Positions 7,092 to 8,668 of a DNA stretch of 36,534 nucleotides are shown here, piece by piece. The notes under the pieces are model-generated. The model did not search any database and had not been told where the DNA came from. It saw only the letters and a program-made list of their open reading frames with translations. The stretch is from an uncultured virus (IMG/VR IMGVR_UViG_3300044646_001664) (Duplodnaviria; Heunggongvirae; Uroviricota; Caudoviricetes). Location of the stretch: the IMG/VR virus record IMGVR_UViG_3300044646_001664, one strand, 5' to 3'. Every line of letters starts with the position of its first letter. Positions within the stretch are counted from its first letter, which is position 1. A program made the position numbers and the translations under genes.

Positions 7092-7114
7092 TAATTCTCC
7101 TATAGTTATATCTA

Positions 7115-7143
7115 AGTATATCAAATAATAGGCAGTTTTACAA
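7115..7143 (-). promoter_or_regulatory. Candidate promoter for the FmdB-like gene
   Basis: TTGTAA-N17-TATACT with an extended -10 TG. Confidence 0.55.
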
Positions 7144-7157
7144 CATGCCTAGGTTGT
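7129..7157 (-). ncRNA. Candidate H-type pseudoknot (or terminator hairpin) 3' of hsp20
   Basis: ACAAC-C-TAGGCA-T-GTTGT-AAAAC-TGCCTA gives stem 1 ACAAC/GTTGT and stem 2 TAGGCA/TGCCTA. Confidence 0.5.
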
Positions 7158-7161
7158 TTAT

Positions 7162-7581
7162 TTATTTTATTTTAATTACTTTAGGTTTCTTGTCTTCAGG
7201 AACAATACGAACAATATTAACTGTAAGCATGCCATCCTTAAGTTCAGCACTAGATACTTCCATGTATTCACCAAGAGCAAATGTGCGAGTAAATTTACGA
7301 GCAGCAATTCCCTTATGAACAACTTCAGCATCTGTTACTTCTACTATTTCACCTTTAATTATTAATGTTCCATTATCTACTGAAACATTAATATCTGTTT
7401 TTGAAAATCCAGCAACAGCCAAAGATAATCTGTATGTATCTTCGTCTAATTTTAAGATATCGTATGGCGGATATGCCTGACGAGTTGCTAGATTGTGTAC
7501 TGTACTTAAACGGTCCAATTCACGATTGAAACCAATAAAAAATGGATCCTTAAAAAGATCCAATGCAAACGAACTTACCAT
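7162..7581 (-). CDS. Small heat-shock protein (Hsp20/IbpA-like)
   Basis: YPPYDI, LAVAGF, HKGIAARKFTRTF and AELKDGML motifs. Confidence 0.95.
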   Translation of the reverse strand: MVSSFALDLFKDPFFIGFNRELDRLSTVHNLATRQAYPPYDILKLDEDTYRLSLAVAGFSKTDINVSVDNGTLIIKGEIVEVTDAEVVHKGIAARKFTRTFALGEYMEVSSAELKDGMLTVNIVRIVPEDKKPKVIKIK

Positions 7582-7632
7582 TTTTTCTCCTTTTCAGCGA
7601 GTTAGTTTATGTATCCCCTGTAGGCAGATACA
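7582..7632 (-). promoter_or_regulatory. ROSE-like RNA thermometer candidate in the hsp20 5'UTR
   Basis: CTCGCT-GAAA-AGGAG hairpin sequesters the SD and has a bulged G. It is preceded by hairpin TGTATCT-G-CC-TACA-GG-GGATACA. Confidence 0.6.
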
Positions 7633-7637
7633 ATCTT

Positions 7638-7646
7638 ATTATACCA
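7638..7646 (-). promoter_or_regulatory. Extended -10 promoter of hsp20
   Basis: TGGTATAAT. The predicted TSS near 7631-7632 coincides with the first leader hairpin. Confidence 0.65.
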
Positions 7647-7654
7647 AATTTTAG

Positions 7655-7726
7655 TACCCCCAAGGGGAATTGAACCCCTGTTACCACCGTGAAAGGGTGG
7701 TGTCATAACCACTAGACCATGAGGGC
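7655..7726 (-). tRNA. tRNA-Glu(UUC)
   Basis: GCCCTCA...CCACC-CT-TTC-AC-GGTGG...GGTTCAATTCC...TGGGGGT-A cloverleaf. CCA not encoded. Confidence 0.92.
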
Positions 7727-7730
7727 ATAG

Positions 7731-7801
7731 AGCGGATAGCGGGAATCGGACCCGCACATTAACCTTGGCAAGGTTACGCACTACCACTATGCAATATCCG
7801 C
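7731..7801 (-). tRNA. tRNA-Gly(GCC)
   Basis: GCGGATA...TAACC-TT-GCC-AA-GGTTA...GCGGG-TCCGATT-CCCGC-TATCCGC-T. CCA not encoded. Confidence 0.9.
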
Positions 7802-7802
7802 T

Positions 7803-7878
7803 TGGCTGGGCTGGAAGGATTCGAACCTACGACATATGGATTAACAGTCCACCGTTCTGCCAACTGAACTACAGCCCA
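7803..7878 (-). tRNA. tRNA-Asn(GUU)
   Basis: TGGGCTG...GTGGA-CT-GTT-AA-TCCAT...GGTTCGAATCC...CAGCCCA-G-CCA. Confidence 0.92.
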
Positions 7879-7909
7879 AACCTTTACAACAACTAATTAT
7901 TTGTTTTTA

Positions 7910-8128
7910 TTAATTATTTTTTATTTTAATTACTACTTGGCAAGGGTCTCCACCATCTTCCCATTCTTGGGCTTCTTCATCACTCATATAAGGATCTCCT
8001 TCATGAGTGTTGCAGAATGGTTCTGTTACCCATCCCCGTTCAATTCCATTAGTTAACCAAATCTCAAACTCATCAAGACTTGATGACTCATTTTGTAAAT
8101 CTTTTAATATATCGTCAAAGTTTGCCAT
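7910..8128 (-). CDS. Acidic hypothetical protein
   Basis: 72 aa with FCNTHEG and GGDPC motifs. TATAAT lies 6 nt before the ATG. Confidence 0.7.
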   Translation of the reverse strand: MANFDDILKDLQNESSSLDEFEIWLTNGIERGWVTEPFCNTHEGDPYMSDEEAQEWEDGGDPCQVVIKIKNN

Positions 8129-8143
8129 ATATAAATTATACCC

Positions 8144-8668
8144 TTAAATGTTTACCACGTCAACTGGACCCATGCAAGATGGACTAAATTTTATTGCTGC
8201 ATTTACCGCTCCAACAACTCTTTTGCGAGGATCCTTAGATTTTTCTGTAGCATTTAAATATCCGTAAGCGTATTCTGCACCTGAACCCATTGCTAAATAA
8301 TCTAAATTATATTTAGATAAAGACATATCAATAGCATTGTGTTCATATATTTGACCTTTAACACAAATAATAAGACCTAAATCACCTTCTTTAGTAGTAT
8401 CTACCCACCAGTTATTATAAAAATCTCTAAGTTGTTTAATAAACTTAGTTTGCATAAACTTATCTAAATCTTTTATATCTGGAACATATGGATTAAAATT
8501 ATAACGAATACGTTCACCATCTAGCGCTCCAGCATATCCAATTAAATATGGACCAAGTTTCCAAACTTTTGGAGAGGTTAATGAAAGGATGGTGTTATCG
8601 TCTGAGGCACCACGATCACCAGCCATGTAGATTTTATTTTCATGACGAACTACAGCCAAGACTGTCAT
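8144..8668 (-). CDS. Proteasome-beta/HslV-like Ntn hydrolase
   Basis: After Met removal: Thr1, Asp17 (AGDR), Lys33 (SPKV), plus GYAG and AMGSG motifs. Confidence 0.8.
   Translation of the reverse strand: MTVLAVVRHENKIYMAGDRGASDDNTILSLTSPKVWKLGPYLIGYAGALDGERIRYNFNPYVPDIKDLDKFMQTKFIKQLRDFYNNWWVDTTKEGDLGLIICVKGQIYEHNAIDMSLSKYNLDYLAMGSGAEYAYGYLNATEKSKDPRKRVVGAVNAAIKFSPSCMGPVDVVNI

Follow-up and report, generated by a model that had tools for sequence, protein, structure and literature searches.

A candidate ROSE-like RNA thermometer in the hsp20 leader of an uncultured lake phage and of other phages

Background

ROSE-like RNA thermometers are textbook riboregulators of small heat-shock protein (sHsp) genes in proteobacteria. 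The 36,534-nucleotide (nt) DNA of an uncultured lake-water virus of the Caudoviricetes (IMG/VR record IMGVR_UViG_3300044646_001664), the whole of which we call the window, raises the question of whether such an element also governs a viral gene. In an initial annotation, made from the letters alone, the short leader of its minus-strand hsp20 gene was described as a ROSE-type thermometer, in which an anti-Shine-Dalgarno (anti-SD) strand base-pairs to the Shine-Dalgarno (SD) element around a bulged G. Our analysis supports this interpretation: the leader has the predicted architecture of ROSE-like elements, it recurs before the hsp20 genes of several phage groups, and it probably acts as a translational thermometer.

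According to PMC3669281 and PMC4166951, a ROSE-like element consists of two to four hairpins that precede an sHsp gene, and of a U(U/C)GCU sequence whose pairing to the SD, within the 3' hairpin, is imperfect. In Pseudomonas the ibpA leaders (Krajewski, Nagel and Narberhaus 2013, PMC3669281; Rfam ROSE_3, RF02523) are 61-62 nt long and form two hairpins. In that work, deletion of the G in the motif locks repression and abolishes induction, disruption of hairpin I causes derepression, and hairpin II alone senses temperature.

Results and discussion

Anatomy of the leader

The minimum-energy fold obtained with ViennaRNA consists of exactly two hairpins and leaves the AUG free (Table 1). Every leader element named in the initial annotation was found on the minus strand in its proposed place, and by sequence and predicted fold the leader shows all the features of sequence and architecture that define ROSE-like elements. 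An extended -10 promoter box lies five bases before hairpin 1; if the usual 7-nt rule holds, as we assume, transcription would start near G7631, and hairpin 1 would open the mRNA. Hairpin 1 is in this arrangement a probable 5'-terminal stabilising or folding hairpin. Contigs from four RNA libraries, some of them from relatives with other leader variants and with DNA in the library possible, match short pieces over the hsp20 coding region (7190-7587), with none on 7613-7639, and do not show strand or start.

Table 1. Positions of the leader elements, the hsp20 gene and neighbouring features in the window
Feature	Position	Strand	Sequence or structure	Basis or remark
HslV-like peptidase ORF	8144-8668	minus		PHROG 1040 at 1.4e-18; Pfam Proteasome 3.4e-4, under cut-off
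Three tRNA genes	7654-7878	minus	Asn-GTT 7803-7878; Gly-GCC 7730-7801; Glu-TTC 7654-7726	ARAGORN; Rfam tRNA 65-70 bits; context, outside the leader
Extended -10 promoter box	7646-7638	minus	TGGTATAAT	sequence; without a -35 match
Hairpin 1	7632-7610	minus	UGUAUCU[G]CC, loop UACA (7622-7619), GGGGAUACA; 10 pairs (U7632-A7610 to C7623-G7618); unpaired G7625 on the 5' strand	minimum-energy fold
Single-stranded A-rich linker	7609-7602	minus	UAAACUAA	varies among relatives (alignment A1)
Hairpin 2, proposed sensor	7601-7587	minus	CUC[G]CU (anti-SD, 7601-7596; UCGCU, 7600-7596; unpaired G7598), loop GAAA (7595-7592), SD AGGAG (7591-7587); five pairs (C7601-G7587, U7600-A7588, C7599-G7589, C7597-G7590, U7596-A7591)	minimum-energy fold
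Spacer and start codon	7586-7582 and 7581-7579	minus	AAAAA and AUG	predicted unpaired
hsp20, 139 aa, IbpA-like sHsp	7162-7581	minus		Pfam HSP20 1.1e-17
Palindrome of 8 pairs inside hsp20	7533-7562	minus	TGGATCTT-TTTA-AGGATCCA, then TTTTTTATT	flagged as terminator-like by scan
Hairpin of 5 pairs past the hsp20 stop	7130-7150	minus	AGGCA...UGCCU (11-nt loop), then AUUAUUU	not called by the terminator scan

Conservation of the leader across phage groups

Relatives were collected by scanning IMG/VR with the window Hsp20; the best 80 of 596 relatives (74-100% identity) gave a window-like set A of 78 loci, L031 and L032 being without an upstream region. Beside it stand a P-SSM4-like set B of 78 loci (80 minus L123 and L167, whose upstream sequence is missing) and an HTVC115P-like set C of 79 loci (80 minus L233). 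A fixed census pattern, [CT]T[CT]GC[TG]-N3-12-[AG]GG[AG]G-N2-16-ATG, matched all 78 window-like and all 78 P-SSM4-like cyanophage leaders and 69 of the 79 HTVC115P-like ones, giving 225 of 235 hsp20 leaders in total. It matched neither the 235 coding-region controls nor the 235 reverse-complement controls. UCGCU or UUGCU is present in 225/235 of these phage hsp20 leaders.

In each of the 78 close relatives the anti-SD/SD block is present together with a hairpin, a linker and either TGnTATAAT or TATAAT. The conservation of the anti-SD UCGCU that the initial annotation called for is complete among them (78/78) and reaches into the hsp20 leaders of cyanophages and pelagiphages; neither UCGCU nor the unpaired G changes in any of the 59 distinct leaders from this close group. 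Two main forms, CUCGCU-GAAA-AGGAG and UUCGCU-UGAA-AGGGG, are accompanied by the rarer UUCGCU..GGAGG and CUCGCU-UAACA-AGGAG.

The 10 leaders missed by the census fall into two kinds. Eight (L235, L239-L244 and L264) have a shortened anti-SD, ACGCU, before GGAGG and behind a bulged-G hairpin 1, and might represent a weaker form of the sensor; the two that were scored with the pan-phage model R2 reached 20.7 bits (L264) and 17.2 bits (L235). In the other two, both marine (L238:1-330 and L247:1-330), the full ROSE-like leader is followed by an open reading frame (ORF) of about 79 aa, of unknown function, and then by hsp20 with a plain SD of its own, an arrangement that by sequence is a two-gene unit under one leader.

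Several cultured phages carry the leader before hsp20, namely Pelagibacter phage HTVC115P, Synechococcus phages S-CRM01, S-RIM2 and S-CAM1, Prochlorococcus phages P-SSM4 and Syn1, and Pseudomonas jumbo phage 30-2, the last in a CUUGC form. It is absent before the hsp20 of Wolbachia phage WOVitB, and the Hsp20 of phage 30-2 as query found no relative in viral_contigs.

The promoters differ from lineage to lineage. TGnTATAAT is found in 76/78 window-like loci and TATAAT in the other 2, fixed at 5-7 nt before hairpin 1, whereas a TAAATA box, which resembles the consensus of T4-type late promoters, is present in 77/78 cyanophage-like loci, and HTVC115P has TTGACA-17-TGTATAAT. Since the box of each lineage ends just a few bases before hairpin 1, this hairpin would be the 5' end of the mRNA and the anti-SD would be transcribed; the predicted start, as the ROSE-type interpretation needs, would lie upstream of the anti-SD. 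On sequence grounds we regard the ROSE-like leader as a general leader of phage hsp20 genes, each behind its own type of promoter.

Pairing in the two hairpins

In a structure-blind MAFFT alignment of 55 leaders (A3), 96.2% of the cells are paired, as against 54-64% with slid partners. Double changes occur at six pairs, all in hairpin 1, and RNAalifold gives 5 hairpin-1 pairs with compensatory change. The covariance model built from A3 (R1) yielded a second alignment, of 47 leaders from the three phage groups and one false row, in which 94.7% of the cells are paired as against 48-64% when slid; this alignment leans towards structure because it was fitted to the model. Hairpin 1 shows double changes here at 8 of 9 pairs, with 109 double-change cells compared with 26.5 in shuffles, and none of 500 shuffles reaches 109.

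Hairpin 2 is paired in 98.5% of its cells in A3 and in 99.2% in the R1 alignment, and behaves differently. In A3 three of its pairs vary one-sidedly (C-G/U-G and U-A/U-G) and two depart through unpaired cells alone; there is no double change in A3, and in the R1 alignment a single one, in one sequence of 48 and at one pair. The covariation proposed as a check is thus clear for hairpin 1, but the SD hairpin offers one-sided changes without compensation. As no real compensatory change is seen, the conservation of hairpin 2 could reflect a sequence-specific binding site, which tells against the thermometer. The case for pairing rather than a linear motif is here an indirect one: substitutions in the anti-SD are solely between C and U and fall at positions facing G, the loop between anti-SD and SD ranges over 3-12 nt with free sequence in the census loci, and the unpaired G is kept in 225/225 motif-bearing leaders (by definition of the pattern), the stem never being extended to a perfect helix. 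These features suggest that it is the pairing that is maintained.

In all three phage groups hairpin 1 keeps its unpaired G, 2-3 pairs below the loop, and so repeats the plan of the SD hairpin with its bulged G. The 5' strand of hairpin 1 (CU-G-CC) moreover complements GGAG. Hairpin 1 was also examined for another exact copy of the U(U/C)GCY motif, which was found in 60/78 leaders of set B, but in 6/78 of set A and 4/69 of set C; the unpaired G alone is general.

The thermometer reading

We consider it probable that this leader is a short, two-hairpin ROSE-like element of translational control that works as a thermometer, with temperature as the likely signal. Transcription from the extended -10 promoter would, judging by the promoter position, start a few bases before hairpin 1, and this stable 5' hairpin would aid the folding of the leader and probably protect the mRNA. 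In hairpin 2, a conserved predicted structure, the anti-SD CUC[G]CU would mask the SD AGGAG with five pairs and an unpaired G. By analogy with the ibpA leaders of Pseudomonas and Escherichia coli, the weak hairpin 2 would bar the 30S subunit from the SD at low temperature and would melt on warming, such that Hsp20 could be made without a protein factor.

For hairpin 2 in isolation, the predicted folding free energy (dG) goes from -6.5 kcal/mol at 10 C through -5.2 at 20 C to -3.1 at 37 C. At 37 C the phage variants lie at -1.5 to -2.7 kcal/mol and the E. coli ibpA hairpin at -4.6, leaving the latter 1.5 kcal/mol more stable than hairpin 2 of the window. As the phage sensors are predicted to be weaker than the validated enterobacterial one, a cooler working range would fit them, and such lower stability would suit the temperatures of lake water. 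Folding of the whole leader across temperatures, which gave nearly flat SD pairing from 5 to 50 C, is confounded by the choice of SD window and was replaced by these hairpin energies.

A number of points weigh against the thermometer reading. The leader does not exceed chance on the window sequence alone: its fold energy of -11.3 kcal/mol has a z of -0.93, with 33 of 200 shuffles equally stable, and the pattern TCGCT-N3-8-AGGRG, present once in the window against 0.16 expected, has at least one copy in 15 of 100 shuffles; the case is carried by the conservation across phages. A two-hexamer sigma-70 scan did not call the TGGTATAAT box, which is without a -35. The Rfam models ROSE (RF00435), ROSE_2 (RF01832) and ROSE_3 (RF02523), suggested by the initial annotation as a test, gave no match at E<=10 for either a 901-nt stretch (7100-8000) or an 86-nt stretch (7565-7650). 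In the nearest-neighbour model isolated hairpin 2 is still over 90% folded at 50 C. A hairpin of five pairs may simply damp translation at all temperatures, classical heat shock is rarely met by lake phages, and self-repression of the IbpA type could be the main control.

Two of these points are softened by calibration. The validated E. coli hairpin is likewise predicted to be over 90% folded at 50 C, for which reason absolute melting predictions are not to be trusted. Against ROSE_2 the ibpA leader of E. coli K-12 reaches 100.4 bits, yet against ROSE_3 it has only 20.8, and the leader of cyanophage Syn1 has 21.6 bits against ROSE_3, the threshold being 43. Since the Rfam models barely see each other's members, the absence of a match hurts membership of an Rfam family more than it hurts a ROSE-like mode of action. 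RF00435 also had no match in G001, the nearest complete genome record (109,757 bp). The weak cmscan matches to preQ1-II (19.7 bits), freshwater-2 (12.4) and SAM_alpha (12.1) rest solely on the A-rich SD region and were rejected.

Alternative explanations

The alternative that survives best is that free Hsp20 binds its own 5' untranslated region (UTR) and blocks translation, which resumes when the protein is drawn onto aggregates, a loop demonstrated for E. coli IbpA, with melting secondary or absent. According to PMC10474464, the gamma-proteobacterial IbpA proteins of E. coli, Cedecea and Vibrio exert translational autorepression by binding the ibpA 5' UTR, Arg93 being irreplaceable and Y34, R97 and K98 contributing. 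The window Hsp20 has R, R and Y aligned with R93, R97 and Y34 of E. coli IbpA, but T opposite K98. Both motifs, G[IVL]x.R.F and [YF]PP[YFW], are found in 225/225 of the phage Hsp20s whose leader has the census motif; the arginine and YPPY are, however, general in this sHsp group and so are weak evidence for RNA binding. CUCGCU is strictly invariant without compensatory change, as a binding site would be, yet a loop of 3-12 nt with free sequence is more in keeping with a hairpin than with a fixed protein site. We judge it unlikely that self-repression replaces the thermometer, while its action together with the thermometer, as an added layer, is plausible.

It is decidedly unlikely, in our estimate, that the leader only sets a constitutive level of expression, its 5' hairpin stabilising the mRNA and its weak SD hairpin fixing a low output, as a non-sensing element inherited with the ibpA-type gene. 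In all groups hairpin 1 stands directly past the conserved promoter box, the classical place of a 5' stabiliser, hairpin 2 is short, and its predicted folded fraction changes little between 5 and 42 C in the nearest-neighbour model. An SD hairpin of such strength is nevertheless inherently sensitive to temperature, and a destabilising G that is always kept in a stem that is never perfected is the mark of a hairpin selected to be labile; deletion of this G abolishes induction in Pseudomonas (PMC3669281).

That the conserved block is the target of some other trans-acting factor, such as a RegA-like phage translational repressor or a small RNA, is highly improbable: cyanophages S-CRM01 and S-CAM1 do have regA immediately upstream of hsp20, and the block is invariant without compensatory changes, but no RegA-like family was found among 39 window ORFs scanned against Pfam, and a shared factor is unlikely because the same block spans very different phage types and hosts, including the WhiB-bearing window phage, as well as the E. 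coli ibpA and ibpB leaders.

Relationship to known RNA thermometers

In design the window leader is, on our best reading, closest to the Pseudomonas ibpA leaders. As PMC3669281 describes these, an ibpA-type gene is in both cases preceded by a leader of about 60 nt that forms two hairpins and leaves the AUG unpaired, and in both U(U/C)GCU is imperfectly paired with the SD around a G in the 3' hairpin. Hairpin I of Pseudomonas is required for proper repression. In contrast to Pseudomonas, hairpin 2 of the phage has 5 pairs and is without flanking G-C clamps, hairpin 1 is unrelated in sequence and bears an unpaired G of its own, the promoter is of the extended -10 and not the sigma-32 type, and the element is viral.

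The sensor hairpin of E. coli ibpA (ROSE_2, RF01832), CUC[G]CUG-AUUU-CAGGAG, and that of the window phage have CUCGCUGA and AGGAG in common, although the E. coli leader is longer and has more hairpins, and its sensor has one pair more. The E. coli ibpB leader has CUCGCU-N7-AGGAG behind a UUCG hairpin and is matched by R2 with 18.4 bits (E 0.026; L081:2898-2955, minus strand), while R2 had no match on the E. coli ibpA leader. The alpha-proteobacterial ROSE elements (Bradyrhizobium hspA, RF00435) have in common with the window leader a U(U/C)GCU anti-SD before an sHsp gene, but are GC-rich and have 3-4 hairpins. The nearest true cellular homologues found belong to two alpha-proteobacterial metagenome-assembled genomes (MAGs; L087 and L088), with 44% identity and 66% G+C; their leaders have UUGCU or UCGCU before GGAGG, and that of L087 scores 33.9 bits against ROSE.

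Outside the proteobacteria, a ROSE-like sequence lies on an sHsp gene of Anabaena variabilis (Cimdins et al. 2014, as cited in PMC4166951); like the window element it has the ROSE-like anti-SD, but it is cellular and is said to have an extra, extended hairpin. As to the claim that the window leader lies beyond the established ROSE lineages, its phage does bear WhiB, but the element is special neither to this phage nor to actinophages, and Anabaena is a precedent. Phage RNA thermometers are themselves known, in lambda cIII (cited in PMC4166951) and in the fourU element of SPbeta blyA (PMC10586365). Both are, as proposed for the window leader, structures in the mRNA of phage genes that respond to temperature; unlike it, cIII works by alternative structures and blyA by four U residues facing the SD, which are other classes on genes other than hsp20. 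Assignment of the window leader to the fourU class was rejected, the strand facing its SD being CUCGCU and not UUUU.

Occurrence beyond the window

Within the 36.5-kb window a single site is significant for model R1, with 72.6 bits and E 1.9e-13, the next best having E 2.9. In G001, in which no HSP70 or Cpn10 gene was found, R2 also finds one site; a second R1 match there (24.7 bits) consists of a hairpin and an SD without an anti-SD, is not found by R2, and was discarded. R2 detects the leaders of all seven cultured phages (7/7, 22-56 bits). It was further run on 151 genomes, namely the Acidimicrobiaceae-labelled MAG G002 and 150 genomes sampled from the phylum of G002, with the top candidates per genome scored. 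There were matches on the two phage-like contigs of G002 and no true copy in the other 150; a weak match in G133 (26.4 bits) is without an SD and has no hsp20 after it.

Every strong R2 match in MAG contigs is followed by hsp20. The leader with hsp20 was seen on contigs of 32-40% G+C in MAGs labelled Sediminibacterium, Methylococcus, Flavobacterium, Acidimicrobiaceae and Polynucleobacter (L082-L086; C69 and C80 of G002; C78, C79 and C123 of G004), one MAG having two such contigs and another three. These low-GC contigs are most simply explained as phage contigs binned into bacterial MAGs.

The hsp20 gene, its neighbourhood and the host

The window Hsp20 matches PHROG 432 (3.2e-38), and its best NCBIfam model is IbpA, with 94.7 bits, which is below the equivalog cut-off of 212 bits. 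BLASTP aligns it with E. coli IbpA at 35% identity (E 2e-30). The tRNA-Glu gene ends 7 nt upstream of the start of the promoter box.

A palindrome sits 19 nt inside the hsp20 coding region, and its GGATC/GATCC hairpin is predicted in 41/41 distinct relatives; constraint on RNA and on protein are inseparable here because the peptide DLFKDPFFI is also conserved. Directly past the hsp20 stop lies a short hairpin, and beyond it a promoter-like TTGTAA-17-TATACT for the next gene; with this hairpin and box, hsp20 may be a transcription unit of its own. Two genes upstream of hsp20 is an ORF for an HslV-like peptidase, the second protein-quality-control gene of the block.

The guess of an actinobacterial host proved reasonable. 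The window, with 35.2% G+C, encodes WhiB (3.8e-11), a hallmark of actinobacteria and their phages, as well as DUF7455, and its DnaB is best matched by Streptomyces phages (38% identity). By these gene contents an actinobacterial host is probable for this lake-water phage.

Conclusion

No description of a ROSE-like leader on a phage hsp20 gene was found in the literature covered, which leaves out most subscription journals, and no Rfam family covers the phage hsp20 leader. New with the window are a WhiB-bearing freshwater lineage, an extended -10 replacing the T4-late-like box, and the variant form UUCGCU/AGGGG; the element is thereby extended to a phage whose host is probably actinobacterial.

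Taken jointly, we would tentatively entertain, as possible rather than probable, a self-contained stress-sensing cassette that joins the ROSE-like leader to an IbpA-type hsp20 in which the arginine for mRNA binding is retained. Such a cassette would have spread among unrelated phages infecting at least three bacterial phyla, each lineage with its own promoter (extended -10 here, -35/-10 in the pelagiphage, T4-late-like TAAATA in cyanomyoviruses). It would exert a double control, through a cool-water RNA thermometer and an aggregation-sensing self-repression by Hsp20, and hairpin 1, the second bulged-G hairpin, would belong to the sensor as a functional duplicate.

The scale is considerable, with about 590 or more IMG/VR relatives per query and hsp20 widespread in cultured cyanomyoviruses (511 phage records). 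The leaders offer a natural series of minimal sensor hairpins, with dG at 37 C of about -1.5 to -4.4 kcal/mol, and the effect of water temperature on phage gene expression would be directly testable in cultured S-CRM01, P-SSM4, Syn1, S-RIM2 and HTVC115P. If the proposal is true, the cassette would control the supply of chaperone independently of the host sigma factor, and phages would carry a protein-free temperature switch that is usable in any host with a standard ribosome.

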